Below, piece after piece: positions 9,629 to 28,499 of a DNA stretch of 44,600 bases (position 1 is its first letter; the number at the start of each line of letters is the position of its first letter). Origin of the DNA: Hormoscilla sp. GTDB taxonomy: Bacteria > Cyanobacteriota > Cyanobacteriia > Cyanobacteriales > Desertifilaceae. Where the stretch lies: the NCBI GenBank assembly GCA_051439505.1, contig JBFRWI010000166.1, forward strand, positions 1 to 44,600, given 5' to 3'. The position numbers and the translations under genes were made by a program. Below the pieces are notes generated by a model. That model saw nothing but the letters and a program-made list of their open reading frames with translations, ran no database searches and was not told the origin of the DNA.

Positions 9629-11161
9629 CTAATCGAACAAGTCATCTATTCTTCTGGGGATCGCAAAAATTCCCACCACCGTACCCAATATACTCAATAT
9701 TGGGTTGAGAGCATCGGCAACTTTTCTTGTCCCAGACTTCTTGACTACGATCGTGTCGTTGTTGCGTAATGCTGGATTGTTTTCTTCATTTATATCCTGA
9801 CTAAAATCTACGGCTACAGTCTGCCTGAAAACCGTACCGTTCGGGTTGAGGCGAATTAGTTCGACAACCCCTTTTTGCGCATCGCGATTAAATCCTCCTG
9901 CCGCCAGTAGCGCCTGAGTCAGTGGTGTATTCGGTCGCACCTCCACTCTCCCGGGACTAATTGCTTCTCCGACAACATTTACTGTAATATTCTCTGGTGA
10001 GAAGCTTGCAGATGCCAGTTCTGTGATTTCATCTGGACTCATTTCTTTTGCCCTGGCGACTACTATCGTGTCTCCTTCTTGCAAGGGCAAATCCTGCCGC
10101 AGGTCTCCTGTCTGTAATAGATCCCAGAAATTTACTTCCACCAGCTGCTCCGATCCTGATTTTGTGCGTCTGCGCACGAGGATGTTGCGAATATCCGCTT
10201 CTTGGGTGATCCCTCCCGCTGCTTGAATGCCTTGGGTGACGGTTGCTGCGTTGTTGCTTTGACTGTTGCCTAGGGTATAGGGACCCGGACGCTTCACTTC
10301 TCCGACAACCGCTATGTTCAGGGGACGACCGGTGTTGATTGCAAAGCTTGCTGCTGCTAGTTGGGGGGTCTCCTCCAGGTTTACGCTGGCGATCGTGGGT
10401 ATTAATATGCTGTCTCCGTCTCGCAATATTATGTCTTGGCTTAAGTCTGCGGTCTGCAAAAGTTGCCACAGATCTACTTTGATAATTTCCGCAGATGCTG
10501 GAGATCTGGATTGATCTTCCCCTGTCTGTGGTCGGGGACGCCGTACCTGGATGTGACGGATGTCCGCCGATTGCGTAATCCCTCCTGCCAGTTCGATCGC
10601 ACCCGTTACTGTTGGTATGTTAACACTTTGGTTTCTGTTTAGGTCTACTGAGTACGAACCTGGCCGGTTCACTTCTCCCGCGATCGCGATCTTGATCGGA
10701 CGTACTGTTAGCAGAGTGATGGTTGTTATTGGACGCCGCAGAAACCGGCCCATCGCTGATGCTATCTCCTCCGATGCTTGGGATATTGTCATTCCCTGTA
10801 TTCTCACAGTCCCCGCCAACGGCATATTTACTGTGCCGTCTGACAATAGCATATACTCGCCACTGTACTCTGGCACGTTGAATATATCTATCTTGATGCG
10901 ATCGCCTGGTCCCAGAATATAGCCTGACTCTCCCTGGAATGGAACCGGTGCTGGCGGTGCCACTGTCGCGGTCGGTAAGTTATTTCTTGGGGCCGGTAGG
11001 ACGTCTCTGCTATTTGGGGATGTCAGGGTTTGGGCTATTGCTGTTGATGGCCCATATGTTATTGCCATCACTCCCGATAGTGCTATTGCTCCCACCTTAC
11101 GCCCCATCCTTTCTGGCCACAGCTGTTGGTGCTTCCGAGCTTCTGAACCTGTACTCATCAT
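9629..11161 (-). CDS. wza: Polysaccharide export protein with Poly_export and repeated SLBB domains (Wza-like)
   Basis: YILGPGDRIKIDIFNVPEYSG, repeated GEV.RPG and AGG SLBB motifs; directly upstream of wzc. Confidence 0.9.
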   Translation of the reverse strand: MMSTGSEARKHQQLWPERMGRKVGAIALSGVMAITYGPSTAIAQTLTSPNSRDVLPAPRNNLPTATVAPPAPVPFQGESGYILGPGDRIKIDIFNVPEYSGEYMLLSDGTVNMPLAGTVRIQGMTISQASEEIASAMGRFLRRPITTITLLTVRPIKIAIAGEVNRPGSYSVDLNRNQSVNIPTVTGAIELAGGITQSADIRHIQVRRPRPQTGEDQSRSPASAEIIKVDLWQLLQTADLSQDIILRDGDSILIPTIASVNLEETPQLAAASFAINTGRPLNIAVVGEVKRPGPYTLGNSQSNNAATVTQGIQAAGGITQEADIRNILVRRRTKSGSEQLVEVNFWDLLQTGDLRQDLPLQEGDTIVVARAKEMSPDEITELASASFSPENITVNVVGEAISPGRVEVRPNTPLTQALLAAGGFNRDAQKGVVELIRLNPNGTVFRQTVAVDFSQDINEENNPALRNNDTIVVKKSGTRKVADALNPILSILGTVVGIFAIPRRIDDLFD

Positions 11162-11402
11162 TTTTACCCCTTTTCCATATCCCTAGGCTATATTAATGGG
11201 CGATCGCCCCTGGTCACTGGCGCTGCTGCGAGCCAAAGAATAATTTATTACAACTTCAATCTCTTTTCCTCTCTTTTCGGAGCCATCTGCCGCAGAACAA
11301 CCCCCTATAGATCTCGGAGCCAAATTTCTCTTTAATTACCTACATTTACCACCTCCGCTGCTGCCGGTTGACTACAACCTGCCATTTATTGCACCTTTTT
11401 TT

Positions 11403-11431
11403 TTTACAAATCTCATATTTTATTCTATAAT
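11403..11431 (+). promoter_or_regulatory. sigma70-type promoter upstream of the omega-RNA-like element
   Basis: TTTACA (11403-11408), 17-bp spacer, TATAAT (11426-11431). Confidence 0.6.
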
Positions 11432-11510
11432 ATAGTACCTTTACGTAATAGCGGTCAGCAGTCAGAGGCAGAGGGCTCTTGCATAAAATCCGGTAATTTC
11501 TGGCAATGTC

Positions 11511-11720
11511 GGGAATTATCTCCCTCGGGAAGATGCTTGATGCAGGTCCAGGATTAGACCTACGTTAGGGGGGTCATGACATCTACGGGTGAGCGCCAGC
11601 TCGTAGCTCTGTCATCTGACTTTAAGGAACGGAACGAATGGATTTTGTGGTCCCTTGTGAGTCAGATGTAAAAAGCCCCTTTAACATGACCGAGGCAAAC
11701 TTTACCCCTTTTTAGGGAGA
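11511..11720 (+). ncRNA. HEARO / omega-RNA-like scaffold of an IscB-type IS200/IS605 element, with no associated ORF
   Basis: Conserved HEARO-like blocks in order: CTACGTT..GTCATGACA..CTACGGG/CTCGTAG..GCTCTGTC..TTAAG..GTG..TAAAAAGC..TAACAT..CGAGGCAAACTTTACCC..GGAG. Pairings: GTTAGGGGG/CCCCTTTAAC, CATCTGACT/AGTCAGATG, and loop GCC with GGC (pseudoknot). Confidence 0.8.
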
Positions 11721-11731
11721 GCCCGTTTGGC

Positions 11732-11771
11732 AGCTTTCTGAGTCACTGGCCACGCTGAGCAAAGCTTTTTT
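11732..11771 (+). terminator. Putative intrinsic terminator after the omega-RNA-like element
   Basis: AGCTTT/AAAGCT stem followed by a T run; the inner part of the stem is imperfect. Confidence 0.4.
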
Positions 11772-12076
11772 GCGTCGCGGTCGGTGAGCGGATCCGAACC
11801 GCCTCAACCGCCTATAGGACGGTATTTTCCGGAAATTACCCGTTTTTTAGTATGCTGTATTAGGGTAGTCAACTGGCGGCAGCGGAGTTGACTACCCCTT
11901 GCAGCGATCGAAGTCGAACTGCGGCTTCAAGTCAGAAGAAACCCAACTGCCACAGCACATGGCTGGCAACAGCAAGCTGCTGGGCAGCACTTCGTCAAAG
12001 CCCAGCAGGCGCACTATGCAGAAGCGATAGGATAAAAGAACATCGCGCTCGACCAAACAGGCTAAGGAGAAAGAAA

Positions 12077-12847
12077 ATGGTAAACGTGGGACTCAATCCA
12101 GGTACTATGCTTGGCATTATCCTGTTTGCGGCAGGGGCTGGGTTATATTTTATGCGATCGGTCCGTCCCGAGTTGGCCCGAGATCACGATATATTCTTTA
12201 TGGCGGTGGCGATCCTCAGTGGCGGCATTCTGTTTTTTCAAGGATGGCGGTTGGATCCGATCCTGACTTTCGGTCAGTTCCTGCTGACGGGTTCGGCGAT
12301 CTTCTTTGCGGTCGAAAGCATTCGTCTGAGAGGGTTAGCTACTTCCCAAGCGAAACGCAATACTCCGATTGTAGATTACGATCGACCCGTAAGTCGCGTT
12401 TATGAGGCGGAACTAGATGAATACGAACTAGAGGACGATCCGCAGATAACCCGTAGAATGATCGGCACCAGAGAAGGCAGGAATACCGGTGTGGACGAAT
12501 ACGATGATGATATGCCTCGCCGAACCACAACTCGACGTTCGACCAGGAGTCCTAGACCTGGTGGTGGTTCGACGGCCAGACGGAGTACGACGCGACGTCC
12601 GCGTTCGACTACAGACCGGATAATTAGAGATGCCGATGATTGGGAAACACCGAAAGATTCCTACGGGAGAAGCAGTGAGAGGGACCGGCGTTCGAGCGAT
12701 CGCCCGACAGCTTCTGCCAAAGGGCCCAGAAGAAGTCGTCCTAGATCTTATGATTCGGAAGGGCCAACAAACTATGTTGATTTCCAACCCATAGACAAAA
12801 GTTCGTCGGACGACGATGATGATAATTCAGGGCGTTTTGACTACTAA
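12077..12847 (+). CDS. ycf66: Ycf66 family membrane protein
   Basis: LYFMRSVRPELARDHDIFF, LFFQGWRLDPILTFGQFLL, ESIRLR; R/D-rich disordered tail; ATG at 12077 with AAGGAG RBS. Confidence 0.92.
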   Translation: MVNVGLNPGTMLGIILFAAGAGLYFMRSVRPELARDHDIFFMAVAILSGGILFFQGWRLDPILTFGQFLLTGSAIFFAVESIRLRGLATSQAKRNTPIVDYDRPVSRVYEAELDEYELEDDPQITRRMIGTREGRNTGVDEYDDDMPRRTTTRRSTRSPRPGGGSTARRSTTRRPRSTTDRIIRDADDWETPKDSYGRSSERDRRSSDRPTASAKGPRRSRPRSYDSEGPTNYVDFQPIDKSSSDDDDDNSGRFDY

Positions 12848-12936: not shown

Positions 12937-13539
12937 ATGTTTCAATTGGCAATTTTAAACCATTGGCTGGTATTATCTCAACAATGCGCAAAGCTGAAAA
13001 AACTTGGGTTGTTGAGGTTAGTGATTCCTTTGAGTATGTCGGGTTTAGTTGTAGGCTGCTCTCAGGTGAAGGTACCGATCCTGTCGAGGGATCTCAATAG
13101 CCGCTACACGGACGAACAACCGGCTTTGAGTGGAAACGGTCGATTTGTGGCCTTTGTTTCTAACCGCGATGGTAAGCGTCAGATTCTGATTTACGATTTG
13201 CAGCAGCGCCAGTTTTTAGAGTTGCCCAGATTGAACAGGCGAGATACAATTGCGGAATCTCCCAGCCTCAGCTATAATGCCCGCTACCTGGTCTACGTTG
13301 CTAGCGACCGAGGCAGACCGGAGGTGGAACTTTACGATCGGGTGACGGGAACTACCGATATGTTGACAATGGGTTATCGGGGCTGGGTGAGAAATCCGAG
13401 TATCAGTCCGGATGGTAGATTTATTGTTTTTGAAACCGATCGTCGCGGCCAGTGGGATATTGAGGTGCTCGATCGGGGCCCATTAGTTGAGTTAGATATC
13501 CCGGATGGTCCTCTAGGCGACATTGACCTTGACCAATAG
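12937..13539 (+). CDS. TolB-like (PD40 repeat) putative lipoprotein
   Basis: Repeated P.LS..GR...F.S.R.G motifs; VVGC lipobox-like site; exact start uncertain. Confidence 0.82.
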   Translation: MFQLAILNHWLVLSQQCAKLKKLGLLRLVIPLSMSGLVVGCSQVKVPILSRDLNSRYTDEQPALSGNGRFVAFVSNRDGKRQILIYDLQQRQFLELPRLNRRDTIAESPSLSYNARYLVYVASDRGRPEVELYDRVTGTTDMLTMGYRGWVRNPSISPDGRFIVFETDRRGQWDIEVLDRGPLVELDIPDGPLGDIDLDQ

Positions 13540-13546
13540 AAGAAAA

Positions 13547-14068
13547 GTGAAACGCTTTGTTTTCATGTCATCTGTAGCTGTTGCCAGTTTATTGACTGGC
13601 TGCATGGGCTACCCGCGTTTGCTGAATCAACCCTTTGACAGAGGTGGGTGGAGTTTGAATAGTCCTGCGGCGGAGGAAAATCCGCAAATTGCCGGTCGCT
13701 ACATAGTTTTTACTTCCGATCGTCGCTTTAGCCAGGATGTCTATCTTTACGACATGATAGACCGGCGGATGATAGAACTGCCGGGATTGAATTCCCTAGA
13801 GGCGATCGCCTCCCACCCTAGCGTCTCTACGGATGGTCGTTATCTGACCTTTGCTGCCAGTCGTCAGGGACGTTCTGATATTTACCTTTACGACAGGTCA
13901 ATGGCCCAGTTACGCAACCTGACTGGCAATCTCCAGACAGAAGTACGTAACCCGACCATCAGTGCCGATGGCACTACTATTGCTTTTGAGGCGAATGCCA
14001 ACGGTCAGTGGGATATTTTTATTTATGACCGGTCTGGACGCCCCCTTGAGAGGAGCAATATACCTTGA
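13547..14068 (+). CDS. TolB-like (PD40 repeat) putative lipoprotein
   Basis: LLTGC lipobox, PSVSTDGRY and PTISADG repeats; GTG start chosen to avoid overlap with the upstream gene. Confidence 0.82.
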   Translation: MKRFVFMSSVAVASLLTGCMGYPRLLNQPFDRGGWSLNSPAAEENPQIAGRYIVFTSDRRFSQDVYLYDMIDRRMIELPGLNSLEAIASHPSVSTDGRYLTFAASRQGRSDIYLYDRSMAQLRNLTGNLQTEVRNPTISADGTTIAFEANANGQWDIFIYDRSGRPLERSNIP

Positions 14069-22808: not shown

Positions 22809-23447
22809 ATGTCCGATTCTTCTTGGTTATCAATATTACAGCAGCAACGGGCGATCGGGGTGATCCGTTCTCCCCAACTTTCCTTGGGAAAACATCTGGC
22901 CCTCTCAATTGCTGCTGGAGGAATGCAGTTGATTGAAATTACCTGGAATGGCGATCGCCCGGCGGAGTTAATCGCCCAATTGCGTGCCGAATTGCCTGCT
23001 TGTATGATTGGTGCTGGGACTCTGTTAACCTCAGAACAGATCCATGATGCTATGGCTGCCGGAGCGCAATTTCTGTTTACACCCCACACCAATCCGGCGA
23101 TAATCAAAATAGCCCTTGCTGCTGGTGTCCCCATTATTCCCGGTGCCCTTTCTCCCACGGAAATTGTTACTGCTTGGCAGGCAGCTGCTACCTGTGTTAA
23201 GGTATTTCCAGTTTCCGCTGCGGGCGGTGTGACCTACATTAAAAGTTTACAAGGTCCATTGGGTCAAATTCCTTTGATTCCCACGGGAGGTGTTACCCTG
23301 GATAATGCTGCCGATTTTATTGCTGCCGGGGCGATCGGGGTTGGACTCTCCAGCAGTCTCTTTCCCAAAGATCTCCTAGCAGCACGAAATTGGCAGGCGA
23401 TCGCCCAAACAGCCCGCACCCTCATGGAAAAATTAACCACGATATAA
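22809..23447 (+). CDS. eda: KDPG/KHG aldolase
   Basis: IEIT, IGAGT, GAQFLFTP, PGALSPTEI, VKVFP (Schiff-base Lys), IPTGGV. Confidence 0.93.
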   Translation: MSDSSWLSILQQQRAIGVIRSPQLSLGKHLALSIAAGGMQLIEITWNGDRPAELIAQLRAELPACMIGAGTLLTSEQIHDAMAAGAQFLFTPHTNPAIIKIALAAGVPIIPGALSPTEIVTAWQAAATCVKVFPVSAAGGVTYIKSLQGPLGQIPLIPTGGVTLDNAADFIAAGAIGVGLSSSLFPKDLLAARNWQAIAQTARTLMEKLTTI

Positions 23448-23451
23448 AATT

Positions 23452-24141
23452 ATGCGCATTCTGGCTATTGGCGACATTCACGGTTGTGCCACCGCCTTGG
23501 ATACCCTGCTAGCAGCAGTTGCACCCCAAAGAGAAGATACCATCGTTACCCTGGGAGACTATGTCGATCGGGGACCGGACTCAAAAGGAGTTCTCGATCG
23601 GCTGATATCTTTGCACGAAACAGGTAGGTTGGTAGCTTTACGGGGCAATCACGAACTGGTAATGCTGAAAGTAGCATCCAGCAGCCAATATGAATCCTGT
23701 TGGCGGAGACTAGGTGGCGAAGAAACCCTCGATTCTTATTCTAACTCCGGACAGGGTAAAATAACAGACATCCCCAGAGAACATTGGCACTTTATCAAAA
23801 ATGTCTGCCGGGACTACTGGGAAAGCGATCGGCATTTTTTCGTTCACGCCAACGCCGATCCTCAGAAACCCTTGCATCAGCAATCCGAGGACATGCTATA
23901 CTGGGAAAAGTTCCGCAACCCAGCACCCCATTTTTCTGGCAAAACTATGGTCTGCGGACATACCAGCCAAAAAAGTGGTTTCCCTGTAAATATCGGTCAC
24001 GCCATCTGCATCGATACCAGAATTTATGATAACGGTTGGTTAACTTGTCTGGACGTAACCAGTGGCAAAGTTTGGCAGGCCAACGAACGAGGTCAGCAGC
24101 GAACCGCTAGCATTGATGAATTTAAGCAAACTCCGCCCTGA
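23452..24141 (+). CDS. Calcineurin-like metallophosphoesterase (PPP-type Ser/Thr phosphatase-like)
   Basis: GDIHG, GDYVDRG, RGNHE, FVHA, CGHT, IDT motifs. Confidence 0.92.
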   Translation: MRILAIGDIHGCATALDTLLAAVAPQREDTIVTLGDYVDRGPDSKGVLDRLISLHETGRLVALRGNHELVMLKVASSSQYESCWRRLGGEETLDSYSNSGQGKITDIPREHWHFIKNVCRDYWESDRHFFVHANADPQKPLHQQSEDMLYWEKFRNPAPHFSGKTMVCGHTSQKSGFPVNIGHAICIDTRIYDNGWLTCLDVTSGKVWQANERGQQRTASIDEFKQTPP

Positions 24142-24148
24142 CTCTAAA

Positions 24149-24233
24149 GCGGCTCATTTGTAGTTGTATTAGTAGGGTGGGCACCGCCCACCATCCGCAG
24201 GCCAACAACGACCAACCGGTTTTGACCACACCC
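24149..24233. mobile_element. Degenerate GGGTGTGGTCA-family MITE carrying a GTAGGGTGGGCACCGCCCAC REP
   Basis: Right end GGTTTTGACCACACCC; decayed left end GCGGCTCATTTGTAGTTG; REP at 24172-24191. Confidence 0.55.
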
Positions 24234-24352
24234 TAGTGAGATGGACTCTTGAAGTTGACTGAGTATAAAGATATGATTAAAAATCCGGATAATTCCTTGA
24301 CAAACAATCTAAATAAAAGTTATAAATAAGTAAAGAGAGTTATTATAGCAAA

Positions 24353-25378
24353 ATGTCAAAAATAAAATTTTTGTATGCAATACCGATCGTCCTGGCAGTA
24401 ACTAGCGGCGTCACCCTCGATTTCACCGGTGATGACGGTGGCCAGATAAGCACGAATCTGGAAGCTTATGCTAAAAGTAGTGGCGGACGCAGCAGAGGAG
24501 GTTCCTTCCGCAGAAGTTCTCCTCCTTCTCGTTCCGGTTCTCGCAATTCCGGTTCTCGCAATTCCGGTTCTCGTAGTTCCGGTTCTGATTCCTACAGGAA
24601 TAATGACGGGCGTTCCTACAGGAATGATGATGGAGGTTACTATCATCCAACTCCTATTTATGGGGGGAGGAGATATTACGGTTATTCATGGGGATTTTTC
24701 TGGTTGTATCTGTTGCTATTCCTGGCAGGGATAGCAGGATTGATATTAGTCATATACCTGTTCCAACAGTTCGTAAATCGCCCCAAATCATCGGTACCCA
24801 AAGAACTTGCCAATGATATTGTCACGGTAAGTAAGTTACAAGTGGCGCTGCTGGGAAATGCGAAAATGGTGCAGTCAGAAATATCGGAATTGATCGGCAA
24901 TGCCGATCTATCTAGTTCGGAAGGTCTGGCAGAACAGTTACAAGAGGCGGCGCTAGTCTTGCTACGAAATTCCGATAGTTGGAGTCACGTTTTGGCTAGT
25001 TCCCAGAAGGTCAAGGGTCGGGAAAAAGCAGAAGTGGTCTTCCAGGAATTCTCGGTGGCCGAACGCAGCAAGTTTAGTTCGGAAACCCTTTCTAATGTTA
25101 ACGGTCAAATCAAGGAACGGGAAGCTGTAAGTCCAGAGTACGATGAAACAGCAGATTACATTGTCGTCACCTTGTTGGTGGGGACAGAAGATGATAAACC
25201 CCTGTTTGCAGAGGTGAATACATTTGGGGAGTTAGAGTCTGCCTTACAGCGGATAGCAGCAACTCCCCCAGATTATCTGCTGACTTTTGAACTGCTGATC
25301 TCTCCTCAAGAAGAGTCCGACTGTCTTACCTACGATGAACTCTTAACTGAGTACCAAGATATGAAGCAATTGCTTTAG
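24353..25378 (+). CDS. DUF1517 domain membrane protein
   Basis: SSGGRSRGGSF, S/G-rich linker, TM, VTVSKLQVALL, LQEAALVLLR, ERSKFSSETLSNVNG, YIVVTLLV, LTYDELLTEY. Confidence 0.9.
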   Translation: MSKIKFLYAIPIVLAVTSGVTLDFTGDDGGQISTNLEAYAKSSGGRSRGGSFRRSSPPSRSGSRNSGSRNSGSRSSGSDSYRNNDGRSYRNDDGGYYHPTPIYGGRRYYGYSWGFFWLYLLLFLAGIAGLILVIYLFQQFVNRPKSSVPKELANDIVTVSKLQVALLGNAKMVQSEISELIGNADLSSSEGLAEQLQEAALVLLRNSDSWSHVLASSQKVKGREKAEVVFQEFSVAERSKFSSETLSNVNGQIKEREAVSPEYDETADYIVVTLLVGTEDDKPLFAEVNTFGELESALQRIAATPPDYLLTFELLISPQEESDCLTYDELLTEYQDMKQLL

Positions 25379-25912
25379 CTATCCGTAGCCGTAATTGTAG
25401 GGTAATTTAACGCCCGATCGGTCAATGATCGCCCAATGCATTGATGGAGTATAGCGGTCGAGAACCAAACGAAATATCCAGTTATCCTCGACAGTTTCCC
25501 CATTTTCTGGCAGGTATTGGTAGTCGGGCGTACATAAAATCATCTTAGATGTGGGGTCGTTCATCCACGATCGCACCATTTCGGTAGCAGCAGGGGCAAT
25601 TTGAACATCATACTCCAGATCGGAATTTGAGTCATGCATCCAGTCACGAATTAGATCGCTAGTATTAATCTTATCTGGAACTGGAACATCAGGCAAATCA
25701 AATGCCCCGGGATCTGCTAGAATAGTTCCTACAGGAGAATCATAGTTTCTGCCATCTTCCAGAAAGCTTTGGATGCCCTGCTTCAGGGCCTCAAGAAAAA
25801 TTACCTTGCCCCCAGTCCGATCTGCAATGGTAGGTGGATCGGCCTCAACTACCAATTGAGGTACGCCGAAAGCCCCTTTGATATCTGATATTGTTTCCAT
25901 TGCTTGTCTCAT
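25379..25912 (-). CDS. Hypothetical protein
   Basis: 177-aa ORF with protein-like composition filling the gap; no family recognised. Confidence 0.65.
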   Translation of the reverse strand: MRQAMETISDIKGAFGVPQLVVEADPPTIADRTGGKVIFLEALKQGIQSFLEDGRNYDSPVGTILADPGAFDLPDVPVPDKINTSDLIRDWMHDSNSDLEYDVQIAPAATEMVRSWMNDPTSKMILCTPDYQYLPENGETVEDNWIFRLVLDRYTPSMHWAIIDRSGVKLPYNYGYG

Positions 25913-25994
25913 CCAGCTATTCTCTAATCAAAAATATCGCCTAAGTAGAGTAAAGAGTGCATTGTTTTTGTTAATTATTTAATGATATCAATGG

Positions 25995-26013
25995 TGGGCG
26001 GTGCCCACCCTAC
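25995..26013. repeat. REP-like palindrome GTGGGCGGTGCCCACCCTAC
   Basis: Same unit as at 24172 (inverted) and in the 42313-42478 tandem array. Confidence 0.8.
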
Positions 26014-26015
26014 GT

Positions 26016-27596
26016 CTAGGTTAGCTGTACGACTGGTTTATCTTGTAATAAAGTTTGATTGGTCAGCAAGTCCTCTACTGTGATCCGCAGGAAACGCCGA
26101 TCGTCCACCCGAAATAGCACCTTTACCCGATCGCTGCCGGGATGTCCTGGTGGCGTTAACTGGGCGATCGTCCGCGCCCCCTCCCGATCGTTCAAGGGTT
26201 GCACGTTCTGTTCATCGCTGGCTAGAATGCGGGTAATCAGGCGATCGCCATCAAAATAGACCTCAGTGGCACCAGTTTGGGCCCCCAATTCTCCCAGAAT
26301 CAATTCAATTTGGGGCTGATTTTCCACCGAAGCACCCAAGGTTAATTCTACAGGTTCCCTCATGGGATAGGGCTGTCCCTCCTTCACGATCGGATGCCAA
26401 CTGTGGCGTTTATTGCGCCGGTTCCAGTAGCGAATGCCGTAACTGTGATAGAGAAAATCTTTCAGTTCGACGCCTTGTACTAATTGTAATGCACCTTGGG
26501 CGATCGCCTCAAAAGGTTTTTCGCATCTAACTTTATCTTTGTCAAAATACTGCTGTACCCAACTCTGGACTGCGGGAATTTGCACCGTCCCCCCCACCAG
26601 CAACACCCCATCAATATCCGCCACCTCCAACCCTTGTCGCTTTGCTTGCTGCAACAGCTGGTTCATCGCCTCATCCAACTGCTGGAAAAACTGATGCCTG
26701 GTTAAAATCTCATTAAAGCGATCGCGATCGAGTGCCAACTCATAACTTTCCATCTTTTCGACATCAAAGTAAACCTCACTGGCCTTCTTTGTCAAAGACA
26801 ACTGAATTTTCAACTTTTCTGCCAACCGCGCAGTCAAAGGCGATTTCACCAACCCCTGAGTCTCAGCAAAATAATCCACCAACCAATTATCGATATCAGA
26901 ACCGCCCAAATTTTGTCCCGCCTTCGCCAACACCCGGGCCGTTTTCACCTTTTGTCCCGACTTTTCCGCGAAGGACTTCTCCCCCCACTTGAGAATAAAC
27001 CCCAAGGGATTTTTCTCCAGACTGCTATCCAACCGCACCAGGGACAAGTCCAGAGTGCCGCCGCCGAAATCAACCACTAGCAAAATTTCCTGATTTGCCA
27101 TCCCATAACCCAAAGCAGCAGCAGTCGGTTCGTCCAACATCCGCACCCGTTCGGTGGATAACCCTTGACAGACCTTACCCAACCAATGGCGGTAAGCTTC
27201 AAAACTATCCACCGGCACCGTTAACACCAGGGAATCTTCCGTGTTGAGTTGCTGTAGAATCTGGGTCAGGAACCACTCTCCCACTTGCTCAAAGGTGAGG
27301 GTGACTCCATCAAGTTCTGGCATAAATCCCTGAATCTGGGTACCTATGCCCCGCTTAAAGTTGCGGAAAAAGCGGGCATCCGAACTGATGTCCAAACCCT
27401 TGTCCCGCACTTGCTGCCCCAGCAATACCTTACCCTGTTGGGCCTCTTCCACATATACTAAACTGGGGATTAGCGGCGGATTTTGCCCCTGAATCAGGGA
27501 AAATCCCGGTAATTTCAGGGTTTCCGGCTGTTGAGTGACCGGGTTCCAGCGGGCAATTACCGTGTTACTCGTACCAAAATCGATCGCGATCGCCAT
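26016..27596 (-). CDS. Hsp70 family protein (atypical cyanobacterial DnaK-like)
   Basis: IAIDFGTSNT, LDEPTAAALGYG, VVDFGGGTLD, LGGSDID, LLVGG. Confidence 0.92.
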   Translation of the reverse strand: MAIAIDFGTSNTVIARWNPVTQQPETLKLPGFSLIQGQNPPLIPSLVYVEEAQQGKVLLGQQVRDKGLDISSDARFFRNFKRGIGTQIQGFMPELDGVTLTFEQVGEWFLTQILQQLNTEDSLVLTVPVDSFEAYRHWLGKVCQGLSTERVRMLDEPTAAALGYGMANQEILLVVDFGGGTLDLSLVRLDSSLEKNPLGFILKWGEKSFAEKSGQKVKTARVLAKAGQNLGGSDIDNWLVDYFAETQGLVKSPLTARLAEKLKIQLSLTKKASEVYFDVEKMESYELALDRDRFNEILTRHQFFQQLDEAMNQLLQQAKRQGLEVADIDGVLLVGGTVQIPAVQSWVQQYFDKDKVRCEKPFEAIAQGALQLVQGVELKDFLYHSYGIRYWNRRNKRHSWHPIVKEGQPYPMREPVELTLGASVENQPQIELILGELGAQTGATEVYFDGDRLITRILASDEQNVQPLNDREGARTIAQLTPPGHPGSDRVKVLFRVDDRRFLRITVEDLLTNQTLLQDKPVVQLT

Positions 27597-27899
27597 GCCA
27601 TGTTTCCGATAAGCAGCTACCGGGGAATATCTTAGCTCAACCGGTCAAACTTGCACAAGACCCATACCTCATTCGCCGATCGCCAGTCACCCGTCATCAG
27701 ATATCTCAGTATCTTCCTGGTATGATTTTCTTGTTAATCTATCCAAATAATTACGGTTTTGAGTTACACTAGAACCAAGTATAAAGATTTATGAATGCCA
27801 GTGTGAAGAAAATTCAACTGGTAGCACTAGCATTTGTTCCAGCTTGAGTTGTATGCTGGGCTGTGAGCTAAAAAGTAGTTAGAGAGGAGATTTCACGCA

Positions 27900-28499
27900 A
27901 TGGCATACGAACTGCCCTCATTGCCTTACGATTATACGGCCCTAGAACCTCACATCTCCAAATCTACCCTGGAGTTCCATCACGACAAACACCACGCCGC
28001 TTACGTGAAGAAGTATAATGACGCGGTCAGTGGCACGGACCTGGACTCTAAGCCGATCGAGGAAGTGATCAAGCAAGTCGCTGGCGACCCTTCCAAAGCT
28101 GGTCTGTTCAATAATGCCGCCCAAGCATGGAACCACAGCTTCTACTGGGACTGCATGAAAGCTGGTGGTGGCGGCACTCCCACTGGCGACTTGGCCAAGA
28201 AAATAGATGCTGACTTCGGCAGCTTTGACAAGTTCGTAGAAGAATTCAAAAGCGCTGGGGCCACGCAGTTTGGTAGTGGTTGGGCTTGGCTAGTCTTGGA
28301 TGGCGGTACTCTGAAAGTGACCAAGACCCCAAACGCCGAAAACCCCATGACCGAGGGCAAAACCCCCCTACTGACGATGGATGTCTGGGAACATGCCTAT
28401 TACCTGGATTTCCAGAACAAGCGTCCCGACTATATCAGTACATTCCTGAGCAGTCTGGTCAACTGGGATTTCGTCGCCGAAAATTTGGCTAAGGCTTAA
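27900..28499 (+). CDS. sodB: Fe superoxide dismutase
   Basis: HHDKHH, FNNAAQAWNHSFYW (Fe-type), FGSGWAWL, DVWEHAYY; GGAG RBS. Confidence 0.96.
   Translation: MAYELPSLPYDYTALEPHISKSTLEFHHDKHHAAYVKKYNDAVSGTDLDSKPIEEVIKQVAGDPSKAGLFNNAAQAWNHSFYWDCMKAGGGGTPTGDLAKKIDADFGSFDKFVEEFKSAGATQFGSGWAWLVLDGGTLKVTKTPNAENPMTEGKTPLLTMDVWEHAYYLDFQNKRPDYISTFLSSLVNWDFVAENLAKA

Follow-up and report, generated by a model that had tools for sequence, protein, structure and literature searches.

The 44,600-nt window, that is, the whole stretch of DNA analysed here, holds a real omega-RNA, which is located inside a selfish gene-less element rather than in a domesticated gene. That this element is mobile and non-autonomous is nearly certain. 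Judging by sequence, we consider it probable that it is a miniature of an iscB transposon, which keeps both ends and the omega-RNA, would be moved in trans by a serine transposase of the IS607 type, and would depend on IscB from full copies to cut its empty site. As stand-alone omega-RNAs are already known, the headline of the sequence-only reading, a stand-alone guide RNA gene, is not new in itself; the novelty lies in its likely IS607-type mobilisation, the CTG target and a built-in terminator.

The omega-RNA and its gene-less element family

A cmscan search of the window against Rfam yielded a single match, to HEARO (RF02033) at positions 11480-11705 of the plus strand, covering model positions 1-211 of 211 with 84.9 bits (E 7.7e-16) against a gathering score of 83 bits, which bears out the omega-RNA identity proposed from the letters alone. 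The stems named in that reading are all found in the sequence and are paired in the cmscan alignment; the RNA-coding part, however, starts near 11476-11480, as judged from the HEARO match and the element end, and not at 11511. The scaffold is further marked out by its similarity to a full iscB element on contig C2 of the source genome, and by double-sided changes at 12 of its 54 consensus pairs among 15 related sequences. The 5′ structure given by RNAalifold disagrees with the Rfam fold, and the RNAalifold fold was left out for the 5′ stem. The ORF list has no entry of 80 aa or more between 11196 and 11888, so that no iscB follows the omega-RNA, as had been noted. The source genome yielded 14 HEARO matches, and the window copy alone exceeds the Rfam cut-off, the other 13 falling below it.

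The element itself occupies 11476-11857, or 382 nt including the CTG target, and is thus larger than the ~310 bp first estimated. It begins with the RNA-bearing end (11476-11521, plus strand), in which the first two letters, CT, represent the core. There are 23 such 5′ ends in the source genome, together with 18 3′ ends, 16 of which belong to gene-less minis, so that the family numbers at least 16 gene-less copies in an assembly that is 93% complete. Eight minis are complete within one contig, with lengths of 357-449 nt, and most family copies break contigs. Two full iscB elements with the same ends are present elsewhere in the genome, on contigs C2 and C41, and the window copy shares its first 244 nt, up to position 11719, and its last 34 nt with them (90% identity over the 244 nt for C2; C41 is cut by the contig end). 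The earlier suggestion of a non-autonomous derivative is upheld, the parent being an iscB element.

A 3′ module (11720-11771, plus strand), delimited by alignment and by folding, takes the position of iscB in the minis. In sister copies it is composed of a GAAA-tetraloop hairpin, a terminator-type stem and a T run, with nested 24-nt inserts in some. While 15 other module segments fold at -19 to -28 kcal/mol, that of the window reaches only -13 kcal/mol and adopts a different fold; the hairpin described earlier as terminator-like is thus of terminator type in origin, but is present here in a damaged version. A further hairpin reported at ~11777-11811 does exist, but consists mostly of the nested 24-nt insert (11780-11803, plus strand), which is missing from several sister copies and doubled in others. 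Motifs related to this insert, which we take to be a small dispersed repeat, occur elsewhere in the genome. The distal element end follows at 11824-11854 (plus strand), where 33 of 34 nt, counted with the CTG, are common to the iscB elements and a change private to the window copy is seen at 11841. The last three letters, 11855-11857 (plus strand), are the CTG target site and predicted TAM. The two element ends are only weakly inverted relative to each other (18 of 22 letters), and both can fold into hairpins; given this weak inversion and the lack of a duplication, terminal inverted repeats served by a DDE transposase were rejected.

The 3′ module is confined to the source genome among the 14 genomes of the family searched, with none found in the 13 relatives, and four congeners contain iscB-type elements or fragments only. 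Named public records with the same end comprise Hormoscilla MAGs, one Calothrix MAG and one record that is probably a chance match. In a pattern search of 400 genomes the exact distal end was restricted to the same genus, with a few two-mismatch hits elsewhere, and viral contigs gave no match. Two loci in relatives (L056 in G003 and L079 in G001) contain a 30-nt remnant made up of the element's first 24 and last 6 letters.

The sequence-only reading allowed for an IscB encoded elsewhere in the genome, and indeed our search revealed two intact IscB ORFs of 421 aa, on C2 and C41, each with RRXRR and HNH domains. The C2 protein scores 478 bits on the NCBIfam guided_IscB model (cut-off 175), and its residues D61, E158, H213 and H311/D314 align with motif positions of solved IscBs. 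Both proteins look catalytically intact rather than dead. At the level of the family, it is fairly probable that the mini RNA would act as a functional trans guide for IscB.

Insertion sites, rearrangement and decay of the window copy

Where clean empty sites could be found, they read flank-CTG-flank, with nothing duplicated and nothing lost. We compared seven complete minis with both flanks to the relatives, and four proved informative: C43 (exact CTG empty site in 3/3 relatives) and C180 (1/1) are clean insertions, and C39 and the window copy have shuffled flanks. In C39, CTG follows the 5′ flank in 3/3 relatives, and the 3′ flank was not found in the three relatives. The flanks of C203, C153 and C113 are repeats or strain-specific sequences and carry no empty-site information. 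All 18 3′ ends finish in CTG, the next base being free (T6 A4 C4 G4), and two empty alleles in diverged relatives read TTG instead of CTG. Since the element starts with CT, the CT core is present at both junctions and in the target. The copies are dispersed, their ends are fixed and orthologous sites are empty, as is expected of a gene-less transposon derivative. Four DNA runs, the contigs of which drop rare forms, showed no joint that crosses the element.

The window copy lies between a wza-like polysaccharide export gene on its left (9629-11161, minus strand; Poly_export and SLBB domains) and ycf66 on its right (12077-12847, plus strand), which are apart from each other in G001 and G004. In these two genomes, what follows the wza upstream region is the 3′ flank of the C195 copy. 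The ycf66 upstream region, for its part, is joined to the 5′ flank of the C39 copy in G001, G002 and G004; the same empty alleles are visible in the contigs of run X17, from a closer strain. The comparison suggested earlier, with the wza-ycf66 interval as one intergenic empty site, thus resolved into two separate loci in the relatives, and the window copy, which joins them, is probably a recombinant and has partly decayed. One G001 contig carries both sites, each on a different strand; a putative inversion between two copies would need just this arrangement.

Relative to the seven other complete minis, the window copy has 19 private letters. Fourteen of these are clustered at 11722-11763, in the 3′ module, one is that in the distal end (11841), and two (11614 and 11619) turn G-U pairs into A-U. 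Many changes at 11722-11763 and at 11537-11538 replace short runs of A by runs of T. Two of these changes are common to other copies (C159 and C180), which hints at patchwork conversion between copies or at micro-inversions of loops. Several other features of the neighbourhood may be recorded here. A palindrome at 11863-11897 has arms resembling the canonical HEARO 5′ hairpin, and a partial copy of it is found at 11350-11375; as both are present in relatives, they are older than the insertion, and the full palindrome pattern occurs once in the genome. The ycf66 leader includes a 23-nt repeat (11899-11921) related to the 24-nt insert and a segment of ~94 nt (~11961-12054), each missing in three relatives. 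Farther downstream, two ORFs that overlap at 12937-14068 both carry PD40 repeats and may be parts of one split gene.

The TTTACA-17-TATAAT motif pointed out earlier is indeed present at 11403-11431 (plus strand) and matches 11 of 12 consensus letters; promoter-like sites number two in 11160-12100 versus 1.2 +/- 1.2 in shuffles. It had been taken for the element's own promoter, which can no longer be maintained: it ends 44 nt upstream of the element, and since the G001 empty allele carries TTTACA-17-TATCAT, we assign this sigma-70-like motif to host DNA that is older than the insertion. Of 22 5′ flanks, only 5 contain a promoter-like motif within 130 nt. The motif points away from wza, and is likely the promoter of a phosphatase-like gene (an ORF family named by eye) that comes after the wza upstream region in relatives and is now on contig C195. 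The predicted 5′ leader and guide of the omega-RNA, at 11438-11475 (plus strand; start deduced from the -10 box), are host-derived. A host promoter outside the element agrees with the dependence of IscB omega-RNAs on transcription from outside the element described by Meers et al. (10.1101/2023.03.14.532601).

The window guide has no second site with a seed of 10 nt or more plus CTG in the assembly, and hence gives no sign of domestication; there are no other sites at up to two mismatches in 16 nt, and one at three. Of the 22 guides in all, four have one 10-nt seed site, and a further site that combines a 12-nt seed with CTG exists for none of them, on which account a host-targeting guide was rejected. 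Instead of a TldR-like arrangement, with a single conserved locus, a second genomic target and a nuclease-dead partner, we found a multi-copy, lineage-specific family with intact IscB motifs.

With regard to expression, the four RNA runs (X9, X16, X17 and X19) are from related strains and contain only 5-15% of the words, and their contigs represent other copies. In X19, the scaffold has a summed contig depth of 23,000-28,000, compared with 41-79 for the 3′ part and no more than ~12 for the flanks, and a contig continuing into the mini-specific module has a depth of 1,026. X16 displays the same depth shape at a lower level, X17 looks DNA-like, and X9 is without the element; DNA runs show no such depletion of the 3′ part as X19 and X16 do. 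These contigs give a weak hint of transcription of the family rather than of the window copy.

The window copy may have a different status from that of its family. It is conceivable, and at family level compatible with the preferred reading, that this particular copy is an inert relic, neither moving nor guiding, although the family is or was mobile; we regard this as the less probable state. The broken terminator and the private letters, including the one in the conserved distal end, speak for it, as do the broken state of the matching tnpA genes in the assembly (see below) and the fact that the window alleles are covered by none of the four RNA runs. Against it, the scaffold is complete and is the only one of 14 to pass the Rfam cut-off, the changes at 11614 and 11619 exchange G-U for A-U pairs, and the 11/12 promoter motif is positioned 44 nt upstream. 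The sequence-only reading also raised the option of a domesticated guide gene. If domesticated, the copy might direct IscB to a host or foreign target, or else provide a leader letting the wza-side promoter drive ycf66, with terminator loss under selection. The strong promoter motif, the concentration of terminator damage in this copy and the loss of the ancestral ycf66 upstream region at this junction would fit; nevertheless, the guide is orthologous host DNA without a close second target, both IscBs look intact, and the insertion is lineage-specific, without conservation across species, with at least 16 dispersed copies and the module in 0 of 13 relatives, so that domestication appears improbable.

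An assembly mis-join across the repeat, which would make the window copy a chimera of two real copies, is the least probable of these readings. Most copies do break contigs, an element-spanning Logan contig was not found (5′ junction records reach 21-29 nt into the element), and some window alleles, such as that at 11582, were not seen in four DNA runs. However, both junctions are recovered at 0 mismatches in four DNA runs of one study (one of which may be the source sample), the 3′ junction is linked to the window's own damaged terminator, and a mis-join is unlikely because the assembly overlaps of 127 nt (63 end-to-start) exceed the longest exact match to another contig, 80 nt.

Relationship of the element ends to IS607

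The reverse complement of the RNA-bearing end (11476-11521) matches IS607 right ends at 31, 31 and 30 of 46 positions, ungapped and with the terminus in register. These three right ends constitute the top three non-family matches among all 46-mers on both strands of the source genome, the next best being 29/46. The IS607 family in question codes for a TnpA with MerR-HTH and Resolvase domains, plus TnpB, and has five near-identical intact copies in G002. Its target is the 3-nt GTG, with a TG core at both junctions, as seen from one exact empty site; for four of the five G002 copies, no empty site was found as an exact join. In the source genome (assembly 93% complete), both near-complete matching tnpA genes are broken, and the third copy is a 3′ fragment. 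In L337:987-2675 (G002) and on C213 and C1 of the source genome, the open tnpB frame of this IS607 is 563 codons long and covers nearly the whole of tnpA, which is read in a different frame. In G004 (contig C29; L075/L055), a 43-nt fragment of the 5′ end of an iscB element is located directly at the right end of a matching IS607 copy.

For an independent check, we collected 16 related iscB loci (59-63% identity) from three other genomes; three of these have canonical hairpin ends and were set aside, and the other 13 served to build end profiles. The right-end profile found 1 of 40 IS607 loci, at its right end (E 7e-4), and 0 of 30 Y1 loci; the matched locus has the TnpA nearest to the G002 enzyme among the 40 (62%). 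On the IS607 end on C213 of the source genome the same profile gave E 1.9. The distal-end profile yielded nothing meaningful in the 40 IS607 and 30 Y1 loci, and the distal end itself agrees with the IS607 left end at 19/36 ungapped positions, inside the background; a 13-mer shared by them, at 18 versus 17 nt from the core, occurs also at three unrelated sites.

The cores of the 13 elements read CT...CTG in 10 cases and CA...CAG in 3, and such co-variation at both ends is a prediction of a 2-bp crossover. The three CA elements form one clade and are therefore counted as one event; by eye, L116 offers a second CA/CAG case and L114 is apparently mismatched. On the IS607-sense strand the core reads AG and differs both from the textbook GG and from the TG used by the matching family. 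In the Calothrix MAG (L107:1-663), a tnpB lies behind an exact 22-nt copy of the distal end, in the opposite orientation, and no complete tnpA was found at that locus. Taken together, the homology of the RNA-bearing end and the co-variation of the core make mobilisation by a serine transposase likely, and we hold it to be considerably more probable than Y1 mobilisation on the strength of these sequence comparisons. The IS200/IS605 label of the sequence-only reading is accordingly doubtful, with end homology and junction anatomy both pointing to IS607.

The alternative is a PATE-like IS200/IS605 derivative, moved as ssDNA by a Y1 (HUH) transposase that reads terminal hairpins, in which case the likeness to IS607 would be a matter of ancestry or convergence. 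In its favour, all characterised ISC elements are filed under Y1 and published ISC targets, e.g. GT|GG, also share junction dinucleotides (PMC4810608); insertion is scarless, both ends are foldable, and Y1 genes are present in the source genome. Subterminal hairpins and the absence of target duplication are indeed observed here, although hairpins are not diagnostic of Y1, as IS607 ends also hold imperfect inverted repeats (PMC6188088). The fixed 3-nt target, CTG, contrasts with the 4-5 nt of IS605-type elements (PMC4810608). In a sample of genomes, the end motif was found at 0 of 35 Y1 loci, and, as mentioned above, the end profile matches 0 of 30, the best non-family matches are in-register IS607 right ends, and the core co-varies at both ends. 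In a quick IscB tree labelled by a crude regex, in which 32 of 68 rows have no label, the 25 rows with the label for canonical ends all fall outside the 27-row branch containing these IscBs (SH-aLRT 99). A Y1 partner was rejected because the Y1 genes of the source genome, one IS200-type tnpA (C60) and REP-associated types, are flanked by other repeats and none has these ends, and L126, the sole Y1 match in the surroundings of 80 metagenomic iscB loci, is part of an element whose ends differ. On balance, we regard Y1 mobilisation as unlikely. It may be added that the Y1/REP-associated tyrosine transposases on C60, C230, C169 and C24 of the source genome are flanked by repeat arrays of their own.

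Proposed mechanism and comparison with known systems

In the mechanism that we propose, every enzymatic step of which is deduced from the comparisons above, the serine TnpA would bind the repeated end motifs and, acting over the CT core, release the element in circular form, and the circle would insert at another CTG. Upstream host transcription would then yield guide and scaffold, the RNA being ended in sister copies by the built-in terminator. IscB loaded with the mini RNA may cut guide-CTG, the empty site, and spare guide-CTC, the filled site, so that lost copies would be restored by recombination. The window copy would be a product of recombination between two copies, decaying at the terminator and at one end position. 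This cut-and-restore scheme follows the IS605 model (Meers et al., 10.1101/2023.03.14.532601) and the IS607 TnpB model (10.1101/2023.11.20.567912).

A broader scenario, which we favour only slightly over its negation, is that a cyanobacterial IscB clade exchanged Y1 for IS607 right and left ends and is moved by a serine transposase acting on a CT (or CA) core, which gives IscB a 3-nt CTG TAM. In this lineage it may have spawned a gene-less, self-terminating guide cassette. The cassette would rely on both enzymes in trans and program IscB at dozens of sites, and recombination at it would have rewired the promoters of wza and ycf66.

The identity of the mobiliser matters, as published surveys tie IscB to Y1 transposases only. 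If the serine-transposase reading is true, IS607 ends shared in trans would explain how part of the IscB family moves, and the model of transposase-nuclease co-evolution would extend to a new pairing. Two predictions follow from this reading, namely a compact IscB of 421 aa whose TAM (CTG) is short and GC-containing, and a serine transposase substrate of 380 nt. The guides would also reshape the genome, as shuffled flanks in 2 of 4 informative copies suggest. In the literature searched, which included passages of PMC9956272, PMC13565253, PMC10691335, PMC11061315 and PMC8987985, we found no report of IscB with IS607, a serine recombinase or a serine resolvase, and no occurrence of IscB together with CTG among the papers listed; the supplements of Altae-Tran 2021 (Science) and Weinberg 2009 (Nature) may bear on novelty. 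According to Meers et al. (10.1101/2023.03.14.532601), TnpB, but not iscB, is found with serine resolvases, and tnpA is near only ~1.5% of iscB genes.

Comparison with known systems shows several points of contact. With respect to HEARO (RF02033; PMC9755519), the window copy matches the whole model and surpasses the gathering score, differing in that its 5′ stem region is made from an IS607-like end and fits the model loosely there. Stand-alone omega-RNAs, mobilised and acting in trans, have been published (PMC10691335), as have PATEs encoding omega-RNAs (Meers et al., 10.1101/2023.03.14.532601). Like them, the window family is mobile and gene-less, keeps ends and omega-RNA, has its effector elsewhere, and takes guide and promoter from outside; unlike them, it has ends pointing to IS607 rather than Y1, a 3-nt CTG target, and a terminator module that is not derived from the parent ORF. 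ISC elements, non-autonomous members of the IS200/IS605 superfamily that carry IscB and are described as Y1-mobilised (Kapitonov et al., PMC4810608), resemble it in having HEARO upstream of an RRXRR-HNH IscB in the parent, in the lack of target duplication, and in ends common to a TnpB element in opposite orientation; the end-sharing TnpB element here, however, encodes a serine and not a Y1 transposase.

There are also parallels with IS607, the hallmarks of which are a 2-bp core, no duplication and phased direct motifs (PMC6188088), and the excision of which needs matching cores (10.1101/2023.11.20.567912). As in IS607, IS1535 and CboIStron, a 2-bp core is present at the junctions and in the target, there is no duplication, and motifs are spaced ~10 bp apart near the ends. 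Our family departs from characterised IS607 members, which have a GG core (review PMC13565253), in its CT/AG core (CA/TG in some relatives), and from IS607 in its nuclease partner, which is IscB rather than TnpB, and in an RNA that reads inward from the right-end homologue. A further likeness is predicted here, in that self and empty site would be told apart at the third position, beside the core.
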